Shown here in pieces: positions 24,448-63,796 of a stretch of DNA of 64,000 nucleotides. The translations under genes were made by a program, and so were the position numbers. Under the pieces are notes generated by a model. That model did not search any database. It saw only the letters and a list, made by a program, of their open reading frames with translations, and had not been told where the DNA came from. How positions within the stretch are numbered: position 1 is the stretch's first letter; each line of letters opens with the position of its first letter. Source of the DNA: an uncultured Candidatus Bathyarchaeia archaeon (GTDB taxonomy: Archaea > Thermoproteota > Bathyarchaeia > 40CM-2-53-6 > DTDX01); the NCBI GenBank assembly GCA_964608455.1, contig CAZSNM010000005.1:4069-68068 (forward strand), written 5' to 3'.

Positions 24448-25851
24448 TTAAGCTTTAACCCATTTTTCCTGTAGAAATTTAGAGATTCCAGAGGAATCCA
24501 TAGGTCCAACAAGAACTTTCCATCCTGTAAGCTCTTCTATTTCTCCACTAAGTCTAGAAGCTCTTCCAGGAATAATTATAGTTTTATGCTTAACTTTATT
24601 TTCAATTCCACTTCCCTTAATGCTTTCAGCAACTTTTTCAGCTGTAAGCTTTCTTCCAGCAACAGCACTTTCAACAGAAAGCCCTTCAGTGTCGACCACA
24701 AGCAAATAACAATCGATTTTGCTAGCTTCAATATCTGAAGCGACTGTATAATATGTTAAAGCAAAATTTGTTGTTAAAAGAATTGGAGATTCTTCAGTTG
24801 GGTTTCCGAAAACTTTAATGCCAGTTTCTACAGCTACAGGTTTTCTAGGATCAGTATATAGATTTTGCCTAAGGATTGTTAATGGAAGTAAAACCCAACC
24901 ATCAAGGCTATGCATTATTAAAACATCAGCATATCTAGTTATTAGCATTGATGCAAGGCAAGCTTCTTTCCATGCTGTTACCTCTGGAAATTCACTAGGT
25001 TCTATCCAAACTATTGCTGGAACACCAATTAATGGAAAACCCAAAAGTTCATCTTCTTCTTTGCATGCAGCTCTTCTTAACATCGTGAAATTATTTAATG
25101 TATCTGCAAGTCCGTTCCAAAATGTTCCAGGATCTAAAACTAGATCTTCAACTCCATAGGCTAATAATGTTTTTGTTAAAGATTTTAAAGTTCTTAAATC
25201 ATTTGGTGAAAAAACAGTTAATGGACATTTATACATTAATGAAAGTTCAGCCATTTCTTTCCAATTCTCTTTTGTAGCACCATAAATCAATGGTTTTTTA
25301 CTGGAAACCTCTATTAATCCGGCCTCCATAACATTTGGATCTAAAGAACATAAAATTAATGGAAGATTTGTAATTGAAGAAACCTTTTTAACAGTTGCCT
25401 TAAATGTATCTGGATCATTTAAAACAGATCTAATAGCAATTAAATCAAGCTTCAAATTTTGTCCAATATATGTATATGAAAAACTTTCAGCTTCCTTCAC
25501 TCTTTTAACTATTTCTTCTTCAGGCATATCATCTGAAACATCTATGGCAATAGCTGTTGGATTATGATATGTTAATTCATGCCTATACATAACTAGTTTA
25601 CCACCAATTTTAACAATGTTGCTTCCAGAACCTATAGTAACTTCCTTTACTGGAGGCTTAAGCATTTCCCATAAAGCTTTATATTCGTTTTTATATTTTT
25701 CAGTTAAAATAGGTGGGCATTTATCTAATGTAACTTCTCTATTAACAAGTTTAGCAGCAAAAGCCATGCAGTTTTCTTCTCCACATTCCTTACAATTAGT
25801 TTTAGGCAAATATTTATAAACTTCTGTTGGGCTTAAAGTTTTTTTAGGCAT
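24448..25851 (-). CDS. cdhE: ACDS gamma subunit (corrinoid Fe-S protein large subunit, CdhE/AcsC)
   Basis: N-terminal 4Fe-4S motif CKECGEENCMAF...DKCP; 467 aa; last gene of the cdh operon. Confidence 0.8.
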   Translation of the reverse strand: MPKKTLSPTEVYKYLPKTNCKECGEENCMAFAAKLVNREVTLDKCPPILTEKYKNEYKALWEMLKPPVKEVTIGSGSNIVKIGGKLVMYRHELTYHNPTAIAIDVSDDMPEEEIVKRVKEAESFSYTYIGQNLKLDLIAIRSVLNDPDTFKATVKKVSSITNLPLILCSLDPNVMEAGLIEVSSKKPLIYGATKENWKEMAELSLMYKCPLTVFSPNDLRTLKSLTKTLLAYGVEDLVLDPGTFWNGLADTLNNFTMLRRAACKEEDELLGFPLIGVPAIVWIEPSEFPEVTAWKEACLASMLITRYADVLIMHSLDGWVLLPLTILRQNLYTDPRKPVAVETGIKVFGNPTEESPILLTTNFALTYYTVASDIEASKIDCYLLVVDTEGLSVESAVAGRKLTAEKVAESIKGSGIENKVKHKTIIIPGRASRLSGEIEELTGWKVLVGPMDSSGISKFLQEKWVKA

Positions 25852-25858
25852 TTTATTA

Positions 25859-27064
25859 TCACCTTTTTAAGCTTGTAATCCAATTATAAATTTTTTCAGT
25901 CTCTTCTTTAACAGTTAATTTTTTAATTACTTCCTTAACGGTTTTAACAGCAGCAGGATGCATCATCATAAAATAGTCTACCCCAGCCAAAAGCAAAGTT
26001 AAGGCTGAAACAGTTTCCCAAATTGGTCCCCTAAGCTCCTTGGGACCCCATTTTGACTCCATAGTCATCCAAGCTTCTCTAGCAGCCCAAGCATTTGTTG
26101 TTCCTGAAGAAATTGGATGTTGAAGTTCAGCATCACCCATTAATGCGGCTAATCTAGTTCTTTCCATAACTGTAAAAGCATAATCTAAACCATAACCTAA
26201 AGCAGCTGTTGTTGTATCAATTACAATCTTATTTTTAGGTAAAAATTCATATAATTTACGATTTAATTCCCTAGCATCATCCATATTCATAGCTGTAAAA
26301 GCTATAACACAATGATTGTGTTTTTTAATGGCTTCCGCAACTTTTTTGATATCCATGTTTAAAGTTACTGAATTAAATAAAATGTTTTCTCCTTCAGCAA
26401 CTTCAGCAACTTTCTCGAAAACTTTTAAATCTTTTTCCGGATCACCACAACCACCAACAGTTAAAGGAACATCAACTGCTTGAAGAACGTCCTCAACTGT
26501 TTTAGCTGCTTCTGAAGGTTTAGTATCCTTAAGAAGGGGATCTATGCTTACTAAATGAAGGTTTATTACTTCAGCACCCCACTTTTCCACAGCTTTTTTA
26601 GCCCATGCTACAGGATCCTCAAGAACATCTTCCACATGCATTTTTACAGCTTTAGCTAAAGGAATCTTCATATCAAAAACATCTATGGAGATTACTGGAG
26701 GGTTTGGCGGTGGCGATTCAAAAAGATAAAATGCTGGTGCTTTTTCACCTCCTATAGTTACTGTTTTACCTCTTGAGCCTCCCTCGCTTTTAGTTGCACC
26801 AATTTTAACCTCAACTATTTCTCCAGGATATTTCATTATTGGTGGATGAAACTCCTCCTCTAAAATCTCTTTTGGTTTAACTTTTGGAGGAGCCTCAATT
26901 TTAGGTAATGGAATCCGGCTTATAAAAGGTTGAAGTAAAAACTCTAATTCTTTAACTTTTATCTCAACATTTTCAAGCTCTATTTCTTGAAATTCACTTA
27001 AAAGCTTAATTATGTCAAATCCAAAATCACTAAAATCTTCTTTTTCCTTATTCTTTTTGCTCAT
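25859..27064 (-). CDS. cdhD: ACDS delta subunit (corrinoid Fe-S protein small subunit, CdhD/AcsD)
   Basis: 401 aa TIM-barrel-like ORF between cdhC and cdhE; stop/start overlap with cdhC. Confidence 0.7.
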   Translation of the reverse strand: MSKKNKEKEDFSDFGFDIIKLLSEFQEIELENVEIKVKELEFLLQPFISRIPLPKIEAPPKVKPKEILEEEFHPPIMKYPGEIVEVKIGATKSEGGSRGKTVTIGGEKAPAFYLFESPPPNPPVISIDVFDMKIPLAKAVKMHVEDVLEDPVAWAKKAVEKWGAEVINLHLVSIDPLLKDTKPSEAAKTVEDVLQAVDVPLTVGGCGDPEKDLKVFEKVAEVAEGENILFNSVTLNMDIKKVAEAIKKHNHCVIAFTAMNMDDARELNRKLYEFLPKNKIVIDTTTAALGYGLDYAFTVMERTRLAALMGDAELQHPISSGTTNAWAAREAWMTMESKWGPKELRGPIWETVSALTLLLAGVDYFMMMHPAAVKTVKEVIKKLTVKEETEKIYNWITSLKR

Positions 27065-28461
27065 TTAGTTTTTCCCTCCCTTCTAATTATAGCTTTTTTA
27101 GCCGTTATTGTTGCGTCTTTTAAAATAATTTTGAATCCTCCTCCAGTTGTTAAGGGAAGAGTTGAAGCTTCCATTACAATAGGTGGCGCTTCTTCAATTT
27201 TTGGTGCAGCAACCTCTTCTTTTTTCTCTTTTTCTTCGATCTCCTTCCATCTTTGAATCACAGGATGATTTTTACTTTTAAGAAAGTTTTTTAATTCTTC
27301 TATTGTTTTAACATCGTTTTCAGTAGCTATTTTATCCACTATATCTTTTGGAATAAAATCTTTAACTCTTTCTTTAATACTGGATGGCATCCATACAATT
27401 CTATTCCATCCACCATCAGCTTGAAGAAATTTTGAAGAACGCATATATTCTATTGAGATTCCATGAAAACCATCAACTTGTCTACCTCCAGCTGTTGAAT
27501 CGGCCATAGTTGAAAACGGCAAACCGTTTACAGCTACACCTTTAAAATCTCTATGAATTATTCCAAGCCCATCAACCTCAGGTATATAAAAGGCTATTGC
27601 TTCAAAGCATCCACAAGAAGTATGAGGATAGTTAAAAGCTGTGTAAAGCCATACTCTTTCAATTTCTCCAAGTGATTTTTTCTTAACAGCCTCATTTACA
27701 CCACTCCATTCTCCTTTAAACGAATCTAAAACTTTTCCAACTTCTATTTTAAATATTGGACCTTTAGGATCTACTCTTGCAGCTGCTCTTCCATCAAACC
27801 AGCTTATGGCTCCGCAATTAGCATATCTTTGTGGGGTTATTACACATACATGGGTTGGAGCAAAAGATTGACAAAGTGTACAACCATAAAAACAATCCAC
27901 TTCTTCATCTTTTAATCCTCTAGCTCTAGCATCTCTTTTTTCATAAATTTCTCTAGCTATTTTTTCCATTTCTTTAACTTTTTCTTGATCAGTAATAAAT
28001 GTTATTTGAATTTTTTCTATTATTGGAAGCTCGCTTTTAAAAAGTCTTTGAAGGACTTTCCCTATTAAAATAAAGGAGTTTAAACCTTTTTTAAATGATT
28101 TTTTGCTTAACCTTAACCAGATATCATATCTTTGATTTAAATGCATAAAGCCTTCAATATAATTACAATATTCATGTATTCTTCTTTCTATAACGCCTTC
28201 AAGATCTTCTTCAATTTCTTTTCCAGCTACTTCAACAAGAATTCCTAGAGGATAACTTTTTCCTTCTTCTAAATCCTTAATATCTGGGCCTATAATTTGA
28301 ATTTTTCCATCTTCTATTTCATCCATTTTTCTAGCTTTTACAAGTTCAAATTTATTTTCTACTTTTGGTCCTCCAAACTCAACATGCATATCTGGCTTTC
28401 TAATTCTTTCACCTTCATAAATAACTCCAACATCAACTGGAATATCACTAAACATTGACAT
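27061..28461 (-). CDS. cdhC: ACDS beta subunit (acetyl-CoA synthase, CdhC)
   Basis: A-cluster motifs CFYGCTLCQSFAPTHVCVITP and HTSCGCFEAIAFYIPE; 466 aa. Confidence 0.9.
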   Translation of the reverse strand: MSMFSDIPVDVGVIYEGERIRKPDMHVEFGGPKVENKFELVKARKMDEIEDGKIQIIGPDIKDLEEGKSYPLGILVEVAGKEIEEDLEGVIERRIHEYCNYIEGFMHLNQRYDIWLRLSKKSFKKGLNSFILIGKVLQRLFKSELPIIEKIQITFITDQEKVKEMEKIAREIYEKRDARARGLKDEEVDCFYGCTLCQSFAPTHVCVITPQRYANCGAISWFDGRAAARVDPKGPIFKIEVGKVLDSFKGEWSGVNEAVKKKSLGEIERVWLYTAFNYPHTSCGCFEAIAFYIPEVDGLGIIHRDFKGVAVNGLPFSTMADSTAGGRQVDGFHGISIEYMRSSKFLQADGGWNRIVWMPSSIKERVKDFIPKDIVDKIATENDVKTIEELKNFLKSKNHPVIQRWKEIEEKEKKEEVAAPKIEEAPPIVMEASTLPLTTGGGFKIILKDATITAKKAIIRREGKTK

Positions 28462-28465
28462 AATT

Positions 28466-28996
28466 TTAACCTCCTTCTAAAGCCTTAATTAAAATATTTA
28501 AGCTTTTAATCCAATCGTTTATGGTTAAATTTGGAAAAGACCATGAAGCATGAGGTTGATAAAATCTATCAAGAGAAATCGTTATAATGTTTGAAAAATG
28601 TTTTATTCCGGAAAGTACAAGCCACTCTACATAATATGGAATAGCTATAAATAATGCTAGATCATGTGAACCTAAACCATCAACTCCACTCCAGTTTGGA
28701 TCTATAAGTTTGCTTCCAACTTCCACTATAGACATAAGGGAAACTGGAATAAACTTTTTAATTTCAGCGAAAGATTTTCCAGATGCCACCACAGGTATTT
28801 TTCCTGCTTTAGCAATTTTAACAATATATTCTATGAGTTTAATTTCATTGTTTGTTTCTTCAACAGCTTCATGACCAACTATAAGCACAGGATGTTTAGC
28901 TCTTTTTATTAATGTAGCTGCAACCTCAGGTTTTTGAATTATAAAACTTTTTGTTGGACCTGGAATTTCAGCTTTTTGCCATGGTTCAGCAGCCAT
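28466..28996 (-). CDS. cdhB: ACDS epsilon subunit (CdhB)
   Basis: 176 aa ORF immediately downstream of cdhA, in the conserved operon position. Confidence 0.7.
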   Translation of the reverse strand: MAAEPWQKAEIPGPTKSFIIQKPEVAATLIKRAKHPVLIVGHEAVEETNNEIKLIEYIVKIAKAGKIPVVASGKSFAEIKKFIPVSLMSIVEVGSKLIDPNWSGVDGLGSHDLALFIAIPYYVEWLVLSGIKHFSNIITISLDRFYQPHASWSFPNLTINDWIKSLNILIKALEGG

Positions 28997-28998
28997 TT

Positions 28999-31344
28999 TT
29001 ATTCCCTTCTTTTTCTAATTAATCTCGGTAAAAGTGTTGGATCAGGAATAATATTTTCTTTCCATCCCTTCTCCTTTAAAAATTCTAAAACTTCATCTTT
29101 CATAGTTATCGGTATGTCGGCAACTGTTCTAACGAATAGATGAAGATCATTAGGTAATGTTCCATATATTTTTTTATGCAAATCTATATAATGGGTAAGC
29201 TTTATTGCTCGCCCCTTTGTTGTATCATTTGGTCTCATGCAAAGCTTTGGAATCATAACTATCGCTTCTTCTTTACTTTCAGCTGAATAAAACAAATGTT
29301 CTGGAACTGGTCCAACATAAACTTTTTCTCCAGTTCTAGCATCATAAACATACCAATCTTCTTGATTTTCTTTTTTTCCTAAAAGCATTCTTCTATATTT
29401 AAATCCATGAGGGCCGACTATAACTGGTATTCCCAGCCTCCAAAATCCGCTGGCTATTGAAGCAGCTTTTTGAGACATTGCTCCCCAACCTACTCCAACA
29501 GCTCCAACTCTATTTAAAATATAATCAGCTATTTCCTCATAGTTTCCACGAAGTCTTCGTTTAGCAAATATGCTTGCTATTTTTATAGCTGCTCCAGCTA
29601 TATGAGAATTTGAAACACATGAACCAACATTGCTTACACCTCCAGCATCGAAAACTCCAGGATACATTTCATAAATTGTTTTTCCTTCACCATTTTTGTG
29701 CATAGCCATAGACATTGCTGCGCAGCCTGAAGCAACAATTATATAGTTTCTTTTAGCAAATTCCTCAGCCATTTCAGCAACCTCTTTACCGCTTTTAGGG
29801 TAGTTAGCGCATCCAACAAATGCTATAACGCCTGGAATTTCACCTAAAACTATTGGGCTTCCAACCTGACGAATTTCAACATCTTGAATAGCTCCTCTTC
29901 CAACTCTAATTTTAAATTTTTCCTCTTTAAGATTTTTCTCTGCAGCAACCTCCATAAAAGAATGAATGGGAAGGTCAATTGGGCAAGCGCTTTCGCATCT
30001 ACCGCAACCTATGCATAAATCCAGTAAATCAGCTAAATTTTTTAAATTTCCTTTTGAAGCTTCTGTTAATGCTTCAGGAATGGGCAAATTGTTTGGGCAA
30101 GCTCTGGAACATTCAAAACATTTTCTGCATTTTTTAGCTCCTTCAATAACACCTTGAATATCTGGAATGGCTTTAAATTTAGCTCTTTTAGGTGCAACTA
30201 ACAAAGCTGTTTTAACAGCAATTTCCCCCACTTTTTCTGGATCAAGTATTAAAGCACCCGGTATCACACCATTAACTAATTCATTAATTACATTGGTAGG
30301 CTGCTCAAAGGTTTTATCAATTAGACCTAAACAATTTTTCTCGCTTGTAGCAATTAATGGAGCTTTAATTTTTTGAGCTTCACTTAAGGCATCAGCCCTA
30401 ATGCATTGTTCATCCACAACAATTACATCTGGAATTCCAGATCTAATAAATCTTAACTGCCAAGATATTGGTCCGACAATTTTAGCTTTAGGATCATATC
30501 TTGAGAGGTCATGCGCTGTACAGCATATTCCACAAACTTCAACTTCATTTTTAAGTCCATTATCCTCTAAATAATCAACGATGCTTATAGCTGATGGAAC
30601 ATTATGACCTATAACAAGAATTACTGGTTTAGAGTTATCAACAACTCCAAAACCTATTTCAGTTAATGGGGCGTCAGGATCAGCTTTAGGAAAGCCATAA
30701 GCAGAAATCTGAGCTATATCAGCTACCTCCATAGCTGTATGATCAAGCATTCCTGCATGGAAAACCTTTGATTCAAAATCTATGAAACTCCCTTCTTGTC
30801 CAGTATGAGTGGCTGAAAGCAACTTTACTATTTCCCTTTCTACATAATTTAAAACTTCTTCCAAATCTCCTAATGTTTTAGGTCTTATTCCACAAACCAA
30901 TCTAATAATTGGAGCTTCAACTTCAACGCTTACACCTCCAACGTCTATTGGCCATTTTCTACCATATTTCTCTATTAAGTGCTCTACTAAATGTCTAGCA
31001 TGAGCTGTATGCGTAGCAGCACCAATACAGCATGCTAATAAAACTATTCTTGATTGTTGAGCAGGCATTGTTAAACCGCAAGCACCTTTTTTATCCTTTG
31101 TTAAATCGCATTTACCCATTGTGCATAAGCAGCAAACATCGCAAAAAGGCATATAAAAAGGTTTGTATCTTTCAAGAAGCTTTAAATCCCAATTTCTTAA
31201 ATCTGAAATAGATGGGAAAGGTGTAGGACCAGTTTCTTCCTCCCAAGCTTCCTCAAGAATTTTCCCAATAGAAATTTCAAAATCTTTTATTTCACCTAAA
31301 CTTGTTTTTAATTCCCCTATTTTTAGCTTTAAGGTTTTACTCAT
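28999..31344 (-). CDS. cdhA: ACDS alpha subunit (CO dehydrogenase catalytic subunit, CdhA)
   Basis: 781 aa with multiple Cys clusters (CDVCCLC, CRKCFECSRACP, CIGCGRCESACP ferredoxin-like inserts) and CODH C-cluster-region Cys/His. Confidence 0.9.
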   Translation of the reverse strand: MSKTLKLKIGELKTSLGEIKDFEISIGKILEEAWEEETGPTPFPSISDLRNWDLKLLERYKPFYMPFCDVCCLCTMGKCDLTKDKKGACGLTMPAQQSRIVLLACCIGAATHTAHARHLVEHLIEKYGRKWPIDVGGVSVEVEAPIIRLVCGIRPKTLGDLEEVLNYVEREIVKLLSATHTGQEGSFIDFESKVFHAGMLDHTAMEVADIAQISAYGFPKADPDAPLTEIGFGVVDNSKPVILVIGHNVPSAISIVDYLEDNGLKNEVEVCGICCTAHDLSRYDPKAKIVGPISWQLRFIRSGIPDVIVVDEQCIRADALSEAQKIKAPLIATSEKNCLGLIDKTFEQPTNVINELVNGVIPGALILDPEKVGEIAVKTALLVAPKRAKFKAIPDIQGVIEGAKKCRKCFECSRACPNNLPIPEALTEASKGNLKNLADLLDLCIGCGRCESACPIDLPIHSFMEVAAEKNLKEEKFKIRVGRGAIQDVEIRQVGSPIVLGEIPGVIAFVGCANYPKSGKEVAEMAEEFAKRNYIIVASGCAAMSMAMHKNGEGKTIYEMYPGVFDAGGVSNVGSCVSNSHIAGAAIKIASIFAKRRLRGNYEEIADYILNRVGAVGVGWGAMSQKAASIASGFWRLGIPVIVGPHGFKYRRMLLGKKENQEDWYVYDARTGEKVYVGPVPEHLFYSAESKEEAIVMIPKLCMRPNDTTKGRAIKLTHYIDLHKKIYGTLPNDLHLFVRTVADIPITMKDEVLEFLKEKGWKENIIPDPTLLPRLIRKRRE

Positions 31345-53449: not shown

Positions 53450-53515
53450 TAAACCTCCCTTTTTATTTTTTAACTTTTTTATCTTAAGCAACTTTATTTT
53501 TTAAGGTTGAATTTA

Positions 53516-54853
53516 ATGGAGCATACTTGTCATATTGGAATAGATGATACTGATTCCCCAAGAATGGGTTGTACAACTTATATAGCTGCTTTACTAGTTG
53601 AAAAACTTGAGAAAATTGGGTGTAAATTTATCGATTATCCTAATTTAATTAGGTTAAATCCTAATGTACCATGGAAAACAAGAGGTAATGGCGCTGTAGC
53701 TTTAAGATTTAAATTTTTAAACAATCAACTTGAATTTGAAGATATTAAATCCATAGTTTTAAGTGTTGTTAAGGAAAACTCCGATTTAAATTATCCTAAA
53801 ACAGATCCTGCCATAGCTTTTTTAAAAGGTGAAGTCCCGGAAAAACTTTTTTTATTTGCTAAAAAAGCTATTCAAAATGTTGTTTCAATTAAAGAAGCTG
53901 AGAAAATAGCTGAATTATACAATGTTGAAGTAAATTTAATTAAAGGAAAAAGAGGAATTGTTGGAGCTTTAGCTGCTTTAGGAGAAACACTTCAAAATGA
54001 TTACACATATGAATTAATAGCTTATCGAACCATTGAAAATAGAGGAACAAAAAGGAAAGTAAATGAGGAATCTGTAAAAAAAATGGATGAATTAACTAAA
54101 CCTTTAACCTTTAACAATTATGATTATGAAAAGGAAAGAGTGTTAATTACACCTAGAGGAAAAGATCCAATTTTATTTGGCATTAGAGGAGAGAATCCTT
54201 TTATTCTTCTTAAAGCTTTTAAAATAGTTGAAGTTTATGAAGAAATTGAAAGGTGGGTAATTTTTAGGACTAATCAAGGAACAGATGCGCATTTAAGAAA
54301 AGTAAATTTTATTAATGAAATTTCACCTTATCAACCTGTTGTTGTGGTTGGTGAAGTGGCATCTCAACCGAAAACCATTCCTGGAGGACATGTAATTTTT
54401 AAAATAAAGGATGAAAGTGGAGAAATTGAATGTGCTGCCTATGAACCAACAGGAAAATTTAGAAATATAATTAGAAAATTAATTCCTGGAGATTTAATTG
54501 AGGTTGCTGGTGGAGTTAGAGCTCCAACAAAAAAACATGGAAAAACAATTAATATAGAAAAAATAAAAATTCTAAAGCTAGCTGAAGAATACATTTATTT
54601 AAATCCTTTATGCGAAAAATGCGGGAAAAGAATGAAGTCTCTAGGTAAAAACCAAGGTTTTAAATGCGAAAAATGCGGATTTAAAACTTTTAAAAAAGAA
54701 AAAGTTAAGATTAAAGTTGAAAGAGAATTAAAGGAGGGTTTATATTTACCTCCGCTTAGAGCACAAAGACATTTAACTAAACCTGAAATAAGATATGGTC
54801 AAGAAAAACATGGAAAAAACTTTGAATTTATAGAGAAATGGCATAATCCATAA
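53516..54853 (+). CDS. tiaS: tRNA(Ile2) 2-agmatinylcytidine synthetase TiaS
   Basis: N-terminal HIGIDDTDSPRMGCTTY kinase-like motif and a C-terminal CEKCG...CEKCG zinc ribbon. Start moved to the ATG (MEHTCH); the track uses an upstream TTG. Confidence 0.8.
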   Translation: MEHTCHIGIDDTDSPRMGCTTYIAALLVEKLEKIGCKFIDYPNLIRLNPNVPWKTRGNGAVALRFKFLNNQLEFEDIKSIVLSVVKENSDLNYPKTDPAIAFLKGEVPEKLFLFAKKAIQNVVSIKEAEKIAELYNVEVNLIKGKRGIVGALAALGETLQNDYTYELIAYRTIENRGTKRKVNEESVKKMDELTKPLTFNNYDYEKERVLITPRGKDPILFGIRGENPFILLKAFKIVEVYEEIERWVIFRTNQGTDAHLRKVNFINEISPYQPVVVVGEVASQPKTIPGGHVIFKIKDESGEIECAAYEPTGKFRNIIRKLIPGDLIEVAGGVRAPTKKHGKTINIEKIKILKLAEEYIYLNPLCEKCGKRMKSLGKNQGFKCEKCGFKTFKKEKVKIKVERELKEGLYLPPLRAQRHLTKPEIRYGQEKHGKNFEFIEKWHNP

Positions 54854-55607: not shown

Positions 55608-55685
55608 AGCGGGGTGGGGTAGCCAGGTTAACCCGCAGGGCTCATAACCCTGAGATCGGACGTTCGAATCGTCCCCCCGCTACCA
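55608..55685 (+). tRNA. initiator tRNA-Met (CAT), CCA encoded
   Basis: Hand-folded cloverleaf: acceptor AGCGGGG/CCCCGCT with an A1:U72 pair; anticodon stem carrying three consecutive G-C pairs (GGG/CCC); loop CTCATAA; T-loop TTCGAAT; discriminator A then CCA. Confidence 0.8.
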
Positions 55686-61134: not shown

Positions 61135-62778
61135 ATGATGAAGATGGCTTATCTTGCTGGTCAACCGATTTTAATACTTAAGGAAGGGACTAGCAGAAGG
61201 AAAGGTAGAGATGCTCAAAAAGCAAATATTACTGCTGCTAGAATTATCGCTGAAACTGTAAAAACAACGCTTGGCCCTAGAGGAATGGATAAAATGCTTG
61301 TTGACAGCCTTGGTGATGTTACTATTACTAATGATGGGGCTACTATTCTTGATGAGATTGATGTTCAACATCCAGCAGCTAAAATGATGGTTGAAGTAGC
61401 TAAAACACAAGATGATGAAGTAGGAGATGGAACAACAACCGCCGTAGTATTAGCTGGAGAACTCCTTACTAAAGCTGAGGAGCTTATTGATAAAGATGTT
61501 CATCCAACTGTAATCGTTGATGGTTATAGAGCCGCTTCTGAAGAAGCTCTTAAAGCTCTTGAAGAAATAGCTATTAAAGTGGAACCAAGTGATAAAGAAT
61601 TTTTAAAGAAAGTTGCTAAAGTAGCTGTAGCTAGTAAACTGCTTTCAGAATATAAAGATTATATAGCGGATTTAACTGTTGATGCTATTCTTCAGGTGGC
61701 TGAAAAAACTCTGGAAGGTTATAAAGTTGATATTGACGATGTGAAAGTTGAAAAAAAAGCTGGAGAATCCCTAATGGATACAAAGCTAGTTAAAGGAGTT
61801 GTACTTGATAAGGAAGTTGTTCATCCAGGCATGCCTAAAAGAATAGAAAACGCTAAAATAGCTTTGCTTGATGCACCATTAGAAATAGAGAAAACAGAAA
61901 TAAGCGCCGAAATAAGAATTAGAGATCCAGCTCAAATGAAGGCTTTCCTAGATGAAGAAACAAGAATGATGAAGGAAATGGTTGAGAAAATCGCCAAAAC
62001 AGGAGCTAATGTTGCTCTTTGCCAAAAAGGAATCGATGATATGGCTCAGCATTTCCTAGCTAAAAAAGGAATAATGGCTGTTAGAAGAATAAAGAAGTCA
62101 GATATGGAGAAATTAGCTAGAGCAACAGGTGGAAAAATCGTTACAAACCTAGATGACCTTAAACCATCAGATTTGGGAGAATGCAAACTAGCTGAAGAAA
62201 GAAAGATTGGAGATGATAAAATGGTTTTCATCGAGGGATGCAAAGATCCTAAATCTGTAGCAATATTAATTAGAGCGGGATTAGAAAGACTTGTGGATGA
62301 AGCTGAAAGATCATTAACTGATGCCTTATCAGTAATAGCAGATGTTTATGAGAAAAATAGAATTGTTGCTGGAGGAGGAGCTGTTGAGGCTGAATTAGCT
62401 AAAAGACTAAAAGAATATGCTGCTAAGGTTGGTGGTAGAAAACAATTAGCTATAGAAGCATTTGCTAAATCATTGGAAATTATTCCAAAGGCTTTAGCTG
62501 AAAATTCAGGTTTAGACCCTGTAGACATAATGGTTTCGCTTAGAGCAGCTCATGAATCCCCTGATGGAAAATGGATGGGAGTTGATGTTTACACAGGTAA
62601 AATAGAGGATATGATGAAGAAAGGCGTAATAGAACCTGTTAAAGTTAAAGAGCAAGCTATTAAATCTGCTGTTGAAGCAGCCGCTATGATTCTTAGAATC
62701 GATGATGTTATAGCTGCAGCTAAACCACCGCCAACTCCATCCAAGAAAGGTGAAAAAGGAGCATCTGAAGAAGAATAG
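61135..62778 (+). CDS. ths: thermosome subunit (second paralog)
   Basis: 547 aa group II chaperonin; C-terminal Gly/Pro-rich tail. Confidence 0.95.
61282..61869. repeat. 588-bp inverted copy of the 16641-17228 tract (thermosome gene-conversion segment)
   Basis: Identical nucleotides apart from one mismatch, compared by eye. Confidence 0.85.
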
Positions 62779-62786
62779 CAAAAAAC

Positions 62787-62795
62787 CTTTTTAAA
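62787..62795 (+). promoter_or_regulatory. TATA-box-like element upstream of tRNA-Glu
   Basis: CTTTTTAAA ~26-34 nt upstream of the tRNA 5' end. Confidence 0.3.
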
Positions 62796-62820
62796 CCGGC
62801 TTTTTCTATTTTATTTTCGG

Positions 62821-62964
62821 GCTCCGGTAGTATAGCCCGGTTAAGCAAGCCGAAAGTATGGCGGGCTCTCGCTCTAAACAGTTTAGAGGAGAGACCCGTC
62901 GACGCGGGTTCAAAAGCAAGGAAAAAGATTTTTATCCTTGCTGAAAATCCCGCCCGGAGCACCA
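62821..62964 (+). tRNA. tRNA-Glu (CTC) with three putative introns, CCA encoded
   Basis: Acceptor GCTCCGG/CCGGAGC + A + CCA (Glu-like). Proposed exons 62821-62847, 62861-62871, 62894-62913 and 62947-62964 sum to 76 nt. Proposed introns: 13 nt at 26/27 (62848-62860), 22 nt at 37/38 (62872-62893, in a long bulged hairpin) and 33 nt in the T-loop (62914-62946, hairpin AGCAAGG...CCTTGCT). The D-stem pairing is weak. Confidence 0.5.
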
Positions 62965-62995
62965 TTCTTTTAATAAATAAGAAAAGGCGTTTAAA

Positions 62996-63667
62996 ATGCT
63001 TGAAATAAATGAAAAAATAACATCGCTTTTAGATGAAGTTAAATTTAAAACAGGAAAGAAACTTTCTTTAATTCCAAGAAGCAATTTACCGGTTAGGGCG
63101 TCTATAATAGAAGATAATCGAAAGAAAATAGCGATTCAATATTCTCCAGAAAAATGTGAGGCTGGAGATTTAGCTTATGAACTTCTTAGAGCAATACAAT
63201 TAAATAGTCAAGAATGGATTCATGAAACTTCCCTTAATATAAGAGAAGAAAATGAAATTGTAAAATGGATTAAAACATTGGTATATACACCTTGGATTAT
63301 GCTTGAATTAAAACGAAGAGGATTAAATTCTAATGGAATAATTCTTGATAATTTTGAAGTTAACTTAGAATATTTAAGAGAAGAGGATCCGCCTTATTGC
63401 CATATAGAAAATCCAAACCTTAGATTAATTTTCTCTATAGTGAACTATGCATTTTATCTTTTAACTAAAAATGAGATTAATTATGGTGAAAAAGGCATAA
63501 TTTATGAAAAGCTTTATAAAATGAAGGATCCTAAAGCCTTGGAACTTGGAGAGAAAACTGTGGAAATAATAAAGCGCAACAAATGTTTAACACCTAAAGA
63601 AGCTGCAAATGCATTAAAAGATGTTTTCTTTATGCTAAAGCTAGAAATAAAAGACTTAAAAGTTTAG
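62996..63667 (+). CDS. hypothetical protein
   Basis: 223 aa ORF between two tRNA genes; no recognised motif. Confidence 0.4.
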   Translation: MLEINEKITSLLDEVKFKTGKKLSLIPRSNLPVRASIIEDNRKKIAIQYSPEKCEAGDLAYELLRAIQLNSQEWIHETSLNIREENEIVKWIKTLVYTPWIMLELKRRGLNSNGIILDNFEVNLEYLREEDPPYCHIENPNLRLIFSIVNYAFYLLTKNEINYGEKGIIYEKLYKMKDPKALELGEKTVEIIKRNKCLTPKEAANALKDVFFMLKLEIKDLKV

Positions 63668-63692: not shown

Positions 63693-63796
63693 GCGGGGGT
63701 TGCCAAGCCAGGTCAAAGGCGCAGGGCTTAGGATGAATATATACATAGGAGACCCTGTCCCGTAGGGGTTCGTGGGTTCAAATCCCACCCCCCGCA
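63693..63796 (+). tRNA. tRNA-Leu (TAG) with a 19-nt canonical intron
   Basis: Acceptor GCGGGGG/CCCCCGC, discriminator A, no encoded CCA. 3-bp D-stem GCC/GGC. Anticodon stem CAGGG/CCCTG with loop CTTAGG|intron 63733-63751|A. Long variable arm (CCCGTAGGGG). T-arm GTGGG TTCAAAT CCCAC. Confidence 0.75.

Follow-up and report, generated by a model that had tools for sequence, protein, structure and literature searches.

Three short introns in a tRNA-Glu(CUC) gene of Bathyarchaeia

Introduction

Up to three introns per tRNA gene are established in archaea, and such genes are most frequent in the Thermoproteales (PMC4033280, PMC8450103). The tRNA-Pro(UGG) of Pyrobaculum islandicum, for example, is interrupted at positions 25/26, 37/38 and 56/57 (PMC4090602, PMC4033280, PMC8450103), and positions 20/21 and 59/60 are among the listed non-canonical intron positions of archaeal tRNAs (PMC4090602). 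In ARMAN-2, pre-tRNA-Cys(GCA) carries a 13-nt intron at 59/60 within a relaxed hBH motif of the bulge-helix-loop (BHL) form, pre-tRNA-Pro(GGG) carries T-loop introns at 53/54 and 59/60 within strict hBHBh' motifs, and a 59/60 intron has been cleaved in vitro (PMC3239211). Relaxed hBH motifs are cut by the (alpha-beta)2 and epsilon2 types of EndA (PMC8450103, PMC4090602, PMC3239211), and one recent survey reports EndA and RtcB in all near-complete archaeal genomes examined, Bathyarchaeia included (PMC12918454).

Here we describe a tRNA-Glu(CUC) gene in a 64,000-nt stretch of Bathyarchaeia DNA, referred to as the window. Like the three-intron tRNAs of Thermoproteales, it combines one canonical with two non-canonical short introns, all bounded by BHB-type motifs, with sites in the D-arm and T-arm, and it shares their tendency to be missed by older or default finders; it differs from them in its Bathyarchaeia host, its isotype and its intron positions (~20b/21, 37/38 and 59/60). 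With ARMAN-2 it has in common the T-loop site 59/60 and a short (11 nt) BHL-type intron resembling that of the ARMAN-2 tRNA-Cys. However, the 59/60 motif of the ARMAN-2 tRNA-Cys is relaxed, whereas the 59/60 motif of the window gene is strict hBHBh' and its relaxed motif lies in the D-loop. The cutting of BHL motifs by a broad-specificity EndA is proven experimentally in ARMAN-2. The split tRNA-Glu of Nanoarchaeum equitans is of the same isotype, is also disrupted and is joined via a BHB (PMC4090602), but it is trans-spliced, unlike the contiguous, cis-spliced gene of the window. Non-canonical introns of the same class also occur within the same superphylum, in Thaumarchaeota/Nitrososphaeria and Crenarchaeota (tRNAscan-SE 2.0 BHB models; PMC8450103). 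The three-intron architecture and the insertion positions are already published, and the window gene adds a Bathyarchaeia example; a literature search of partial coverage, pairing Bathyarchaeota with tRNA or non-canonical introns, returned no report of such genes.

Results

The tRNA-Glu gene spans 144 nt (window 62821-62964, + strand) inside a 217-nt spacer. It shows the acceptor halves GCTCCGG...CCGGAGC-A-CCA, a GCGGG/CCCGC T-stem and CUC within CU-CUC-G, bearing out an earlier note that had quoted this sequence and read its acceptor and T-arm as Glu-like. We resolved the locus into the following features.

61135-62778: thermosome gene, 5' neighbour of the tRNA-Glu gene
62788-62795 (+): probable TATA box (TTTTTAAA), centred ~29 nt 5' of the mature tRNA end
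62821-62843 (+): exon 1, 23 nt; acceptor 5' strand GCUCCGG, U8 A9, D-stem 5' strand GUAU, D-loop AGCCCGGUUA
62844-62854 (+): intron 1, 11 nt (AGCAAGCCGAA); D-loop, ~20b/21; relaxed hBH/BHL
62855-62871 (+): exon 2, 17 nt; A21, D-stem 3' strand GUAU, G26, anticodon stem 5' strand GCGGG, C32 U33, CUC (62868-62870), G37
62872-62893 (+): intron 2, 22 nt; canonical 37/38; strict hBHBh'
62894-62914 (+): exon 3, 21 nt; A38, anticodon stem 3' strand CCCGU, variable loop CGAC, T-stem 5' strand GCGGG, T-loop UUCAAA (54-59)
62915-62947 (+): intron 3, 33 nt; T-loop, 59/60; strict hBHBh'
62948-62964 (+): exon 4, 17 nt; U60, T-stem 3' strand CCCGC, acceptor 3' strand CCGGAGC, A73 discriminator, genome-encoded CCA (62962-62964)
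62965-62971 (+): T-rich tract TTCTTTT, immediately 3' of the CCA
62996-63667 (+): conserved 223-aa ORF directly 3' of the tRNA-Glu gene, without a Pfam match

The window has a GC content of ~30% and contains only three strong GC islands, all of them tRNAs and the tRNA-Glu locus among them; the same scan revealed no additional hidden structured RNA in the window. The best relatives of the thermosome are from Candidatus Bathyarchaeia/Bathyarchaeota MAGs. The window also holds a CO dehydrogenase/acetyl-CoA synthase cluster (24448-31344, - strand) with two CdhD-family ORFs, large neighbouring ORFs and the CdhB epsilon subunit (28466-28996), as well as TiaS, the agmatidine synthase that modifies tRNA-Ile2 in archaea (53507-54853, + strand), a gene content that fits a Wood-Ljungdahl Bathyarchaeia genome. 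An 81-aa antisense ORF (62720-62965, - strand) covers the entire tRNA-Glu gene together with the 3' end of the thermosome gene; it is almost certainly spurious, and ORF finders could mis-call it as a gene.

Joining the four exons in silico (23+17+21+17) yields a 78-nt product, GCUCCGGUAGUAUAGCCCGGUUAAGUAUGGCGGGCUCUCGACCCGUCGACGCGGGUUCAAAUCCCGCCCGGAGCACCA, with the junctions GGUUA^AGUAU, CUCUCG^ACCC and UUCAAA^UCCC. ARAGORN calls this 78-mer tRNA-Glu(ctc) and draws a full cloverleaf in which the acceptor is 7 bp long, the D, anticodon and T arms are present and CUC occupies 34-36. The conserved bases U8, A14, G18G19, A21, U33, R37, G53, U54U55C56, A58 and C61 are all in place, and the D-stem of the mature tRNA contains two G-U pairs. 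If intron 2 is left in place and the other two are taken out, ARAGORN -i identifies tRNA-Glu with intron 2 as its canonical intron. The four exons are contiguous and collinear inside 144 nt, so a split or trans-spliced arrangement does not apply.

The intact locus escapes these detectors, as the earlier note had anticipated for default tRNA scans. ARAGORN run on the whole window reported only tRNA-Met (55608-55685), and its default, intron and relaxed settings gave no tRNA-Glu call on the unspliced locus. At very low stringency it proposed a tRNA-Gly with a 106-nt 'intron' there, which we rejected as spurious. Rfam at its gathering threshold matched tRNA-Met and an intron-bearing tRNA at 63693-63796, with the tRNA-Glu locus absent; at E<=10 the locus still had no match to the tRNA family (RF00005), and matches to other families stayed at chance level (E >=0.8). 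Rfam likewise misses the three-intron tRNA-Glu genes of loci L059 and L128, while RF00005 scores an intronless relative (L016) at 61.8 bits and the Bathyarchaeia MAG orthologue L053, which consists of the window exons bar 1 nt plus a canonical intron, at 49.4 bits (gathering 29). tRNAscan-SE 2.0 may well detect the window gene. As for the other two tRNA genes, tRNA-Met(CAU) (55608-55685, + strand) is intronless, encodes its CCA and was found by both ARAGORN and Rfam (64 bits), and its A1-U72 pair fits an archaeal initiator. The tRNA-Leu(UAG) gene (63693-63796, + strand) has a long variable arm, a canonical 19-nt intron (63733-63751) and no encoded CCA, and scored 45.2 bits with Rfam; the default ARAGORN run missed it.

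To place the splice sites we used a BHB rule calibrated on this neighbouring tRNA-Leu, whose intron motif reads CUUA [GG^A] ... UAGG [AG^A]: a 3-nt bulge (square brackets) lies 3' of a 4-bp helix on each strand, and the cut (^) falls after bulge nucleotide 2. The three introns of the tRNA-Glu gene parse as follows.

Intron 1: CGGU [UA^A] GCAA GCCG [AA^A] GUAU
Intron 2: GCGGG CUCU [CG^C] UCUAAA cag UUUAGA GGAG [AG^A] CCCGU
Intron 3: GCGGG UUCA [AA^A] GCAAGGA...UCCUUGC UGAA [AA^U] CCCGC

A scripted parse found the central helix H complete (4/4 bp) at all three sites. Intron 2 has bulges CGC/AGA, an h' of 6 bp and an h of at least 5 bp; intron 3 has bulges AAA/AAU, an h' of at least 7 bp and the 5-bp T-stem as h. 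Intron 1 has a 3-nt 3' bulge (AAA), a 5' site within a 7-nt hairpin loop and no h', and the D-stem, the would-be h, sits 4 nt off H on the 5' strand; a bulge-helix-loop of this form is classed as relaxed hBH/BHL (PMC3239211). In the earlier note, the second insert (22 nt behind position 37; 62872-62893) and the third (33 nt in the T-loop; 62915-62947) had been placed correctly, but the second had been taken for a relaxed motif, whereas its geometry is strict 3-4-3 hBHBh'. Cutting each bulge behind its second nucleotide at all three sites restores exactly the sequence that is uninterrupted in L053 and in intronless homologues. Because junction bases are repeated, the exact cut sites are set by BHB geometry and not by the sequence of the product. 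Of the 41 distinct homologues with introns among the matches listed, nearly all share this geometry.

For the unspliced 144-mer, the folding energy is -69.2 kcal/mol (z = -6.6), a value that none of 200 dinucleotide shuffles equalled. In the minimum free energy fold of the precursor, the intron-2 helix adopts a register slipped by 2 nt, with 1-nt instead of 3-nt bulges; in orthologues with the 3' bulge AAA this slipped register is impossible and the BHB register is kept.

The thermosome protein of the window had no exact match among database records. We reached close relatives through thermosome homologues, and gene order is shared by contigs whose thermosomes are 82-87% identical (tblastn) to that of the window. 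Synteny of the 223-aa ORF is kept in L001-L009 at 73-96% identity. The elements of L001-L003 differ from that of the window only by one base in the intron-2 loop and one extra T in the intron-3 loop, and the exons of L004-L009 are identical to the window exons at 78/78 or 77/78 positions. Exon 1 is identical in all orthologues and exon 2 is invariant; exon 3 changes are a variable-loop G-to-A in L007/L008 and a T-stem G-to-U in L053. Intron lengths vary: in the window, L004, L007 and L009, respectively, intron 1 measures 11, 12, 12 and 13 nt, intron 2 measures 22, 17, 17 and 17 nt, and intron 3 measures 33, 25, 38 and 26 nt. In intron 1, orthologues vary only in the loop flanked by CGGTTAA and GCCGAAAGTAT, and intron 2 shows compensatory changes (UCU/AGA to UUUU/AAAA) with its helices kept. 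The exon difference of L053 from the window is the single one noted above, and its sole intron is the 13-nt canonical one; junctions 1 and 3 therefore occur uninterrupted in nature. Upstream, TTTTTAA (62788-62794) is invariant in six syntenic orthologues while adjacent spacer positions vary, and this conservation, together with its position, makes TTTTTAAA the probable promoter of the tRNA-Glu gene. Downstream, TTCTTTT is a candidate oligo-T archaeal terminator, a possible role suggested by its sequence.

A wider scan with the 5' 20-mer, covering one genome per GTDB species, recovered at least 120 archaeal tRNA-Glu loci that have the first 20 nt of exon 1 in common. Amongst the 36 distinct CUC genes in the matches listed, introns at all three sites of the window gene were the commonest architecture (13 genes), followed by D-loop plus T-loop introns (12) and no intron (7); anticodon plus T-loop introns occurred in 2 genes, an anticodon intron alone in 1 and a D-loop intron alone in 1. 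The 12 further distinct three-intron Glu(CUC) sequences often lie 3' of a thermosome gene, and all three-intron genes among the matches listed are on contigs that are labelled Bathyarchaeia or bear an archaeal thermosome. The T-loop intron ranges from 19 to 38 nt across the 27 distinct genes that carry it among these matches. To assess covariation, 15 distinct T-loop intron junctions were aligned, length-normalised and trimmed; 99.5% of cells in this alignment were paired as against 30-51% in slid controls. Within h', all four pairs showed double-sided compensatory changes, and the covariation score was reached by 0 of 500 shuffles. Judged from these comparisons, the exons are evidently under purifying selection and the intron helices under structural selection.

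The scan also returned related intron sites in other tRNA-Glu genes. Three Sulfolobales tRNA-Glu genes, from Ca. Aramenus (L013), a Sulfolobales MAG (L030) and Ca. Acidianus copahuensis (L094), have a D-loop intron of 16-27 nt with a real h' helix, at the site of window intron 1 and with the same CGGU/rCCG helix; the insertion point thus extends well beyond Bathyarchaeia. Two Bathyarchaeia MAGs (L090, L116) carry a tRNA-Glu(CUC) with the canonical intron and a T-arm intron of ~30 nt that lies near 53/54-54/55 rather than at 59/60 (GCGGG TGACC...GCGAA TTCGAATCCCGC). In two Aigarchaeota MAGs (L087 100-195, L032 2437-2533), tRNA-Glu(UUC) has an intron of ~21 nt that seems to interrupt the anticodon stem on its 5' strand (...AGTATACAGGC[...]GGCCTTTCG...), for which the parser gave no placement.

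Discussion

We are highly confident that the locus is a functional Bathyarchaeia tRNA-Glu(CUC) gene of four exons and three short, protein-spliced introns. The earlier note's central claim of three BHB-type introns in a tRNA-Glu(CUC) gene is upheld by the ARAGORN call on the spliced form, by the 49.4-bit Rfam tRNA score of L053, by invariant exons alongside variable introns and by covariation in the intron helix. What the sequences show directly is how the gene is organised, its BHB geometry, the pattern of conservation and the covariation. By analogy with described systems, we would expect the gene to be transcribed, cleaved and ligated. Its own TATA-box promoter probably drives a pre-tRNA of ~144 nt, in which each pair of exon-intron boundaries would fold as a BHB, a 4-bp helix between 3-nt bulges. 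EndA would then cut at six bulge positions, after the second nucleotide of each, and an RtcB-type ligase would join the exons into a standard cloverleaf tRNA-Glu; since CCA is encoded, CCA addition is unnecessary. The strict motifs of introns 2 and 3 should be cleavable by any EndA type, whereas the relaxed hBH/BHL motif of intron 1 leads us to predict a broad-specificity EndA in this organism, (alpha-beta)2 or epsilon2 (PMC3239211, PMC4033280). A Korarchaeum-like alpha2 with the specific loop also counts among the endonucleases able to cut relaxed motifs. None of 40 window ORFs scanned (100-509 aa) matched the EndA or RtcB Pfam families.

The position of the first intron is where our account departs from the earlier note, which had partitioned the locus with a 13-nt intron 1 at 26/27 (AAGCCGAAAGTAT), a D-arm GUAU/AAGC and a 76-nt tRNA. 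ARAGORN accepts that 76-nt product, too, as tRNA-Glu(ctc). It nevertheless has an A-A mismatch in its D-stem, and in a manual check we could draw no central helix of 4 bp with 3-nt bulges at its cut sites. Orthologue variation, moreover, lies solely in the intron-1 loop defined above, and the 26/27 junction is found in no homologue: L053 and all 32 distinct intronless tRNA-Glu sequences among the matches listed (76 loci) read GGyyAAGTATG, the intronless ones as CCCGGyyAAGTAT across junction 1. The sequences of L053 and the intronless homologues thereby place junction 1 at GGUUA^AGUAU and junction 3 at UUCAAA^UCCC and refute both the 26/27 intron and the 76-nt product, the gene having instead an 11-nt intron (62844-62854) in the D-loop at ~20b/21 and a product of 78 nt including CCA; we consider the 26/27 partition extremely unlikely. 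A 9-nt intron 1 (GGUU/AGCC helix, 13-nt D-loop) is also accepted by ARAGORN, and we rejected it since its junction occurs in no homologue among the matches listed.

The failure of standard detectors would also be expected of a decaying tRNA pseudogene with three insertions and no processing to a functional tRNA. Against such decay, the exons are invariant in orthologues despite diverged spacer and introns, the inserts hold to exact BHB geometry and show compensatory changes, conservation extends to the putative TATA box, and the three-intron form is the commonest amongst the CUC genes of the matches listed (13/36). Taken together, these features argue for purifying selection on the spliced product and make a pseudogene very improbable. 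To the suggestion that the locus is a different structured ncRNA or a regulatory hairpin cluster, tRNA-like at its ends only, we give almost no credence: the unspliced sequence does lack an Rfam tRNA match even at E<=10, but no other Rfam family covers or claims the locus beyond chance-level overlaps, and its four conserved blocks join into a perfect tRNA-Glu one base away from the Rfam-detected tRNA of L053. The earlier note had also presented such genes as a trait of Thermoproteales, Korarchaeota and other TACK lineages; the host does belong to a TACK lineage, but it is a member of the Bathyarchaeia and of neither named group.

The three-intron state is common to syntenic Bathyarchaeia orthologues whose thermosomes are only ~70% identical, which looks like long vertical retention, unlike the recent transposition proposed for Thermoproteales. 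A broader proposal holds that the D- and T-loop introns of tRNA-Glu(CUC) are ancient, vertically inherited and selectively kept at a conserved thermosome-linked locus over much of the class Bathyarchaeia, and that in at least one complete Bathyarchaeota chromosome (L044) the gene was split exactly at the intron-1 site; we regard this as rather unlikely. Under it, retention of introns at a conserved locus would imply selection for the interrupted state, and interruption might shield the gene from integrating elements or order its modification steps. At the syntenic spot 3' of the thermosome, L044 (2437-2456, - strand; CP070759.1, the Bathyarchaeota bin28 chromosome, within 672001-680000) has just the first 23 nt of tRNA-Glu (GCTCCGGTAGTATAGCCCGGTTA). 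The match ends precisely at the 5' splice site of intron 1, and the unrelated sequence beyond it contains a GGAGATATCTCC palindrome, a T7 run and an ORF that encodes protein. CCGGAGCA is absent throughout the 8-kb L044 locus. From its sequence, the fragment may be a truncated remnant or the candidate 5' part of a split tRNA; if it is split, a separate 3' piece carrying ...GCCGARAGTATGGCGGGCTCTCG...CCGGAGCA, with a leader complementary to the L044 trailer, would be expected, and a split tRNA would occur in a lineage for which we found none described. In L085 (2294-2313, - strand; Nitrososphaeria MAG S_237_B8), also 3' of the thermosome, the 5' part of tRNA-Glu stops after ...AGTATACCG, with the break at ~29/30 and unrelated sequence beyond; the gene may be split or disrupted here, or the break may be a scar of integration.

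The known workings of such introns are unchanged by the window gene, and its main value lies in annotation. Because neither ARAGORN nor the Rfam tRNA model sees a required isoacceptor, Bathyarchaeia MAGs seem to be without tRNA-Glu(CUC), which skews completeness and codon-usage inferences for the MAGs of an abundant sediment lineage. Orthologues with 0, 1, 2 and 3 introns at one syntenic locus also provide a natural series for the gain and loss of non-canonical introns. Bathyarchaeia-type tRNA-Glu genes were also found on three contigs in foreign bins, DATIYC010000203.1 ('Candidatus Acidiferrales bacterium', L128), DASPTR010000111.1 ('Candidatus Acidoferrum sp.', L083) and JAPDJO010000014.1 ('Thermoplasmatota', L081); the first also carries an archaeal thermosome, and all three are probably mis-binned.
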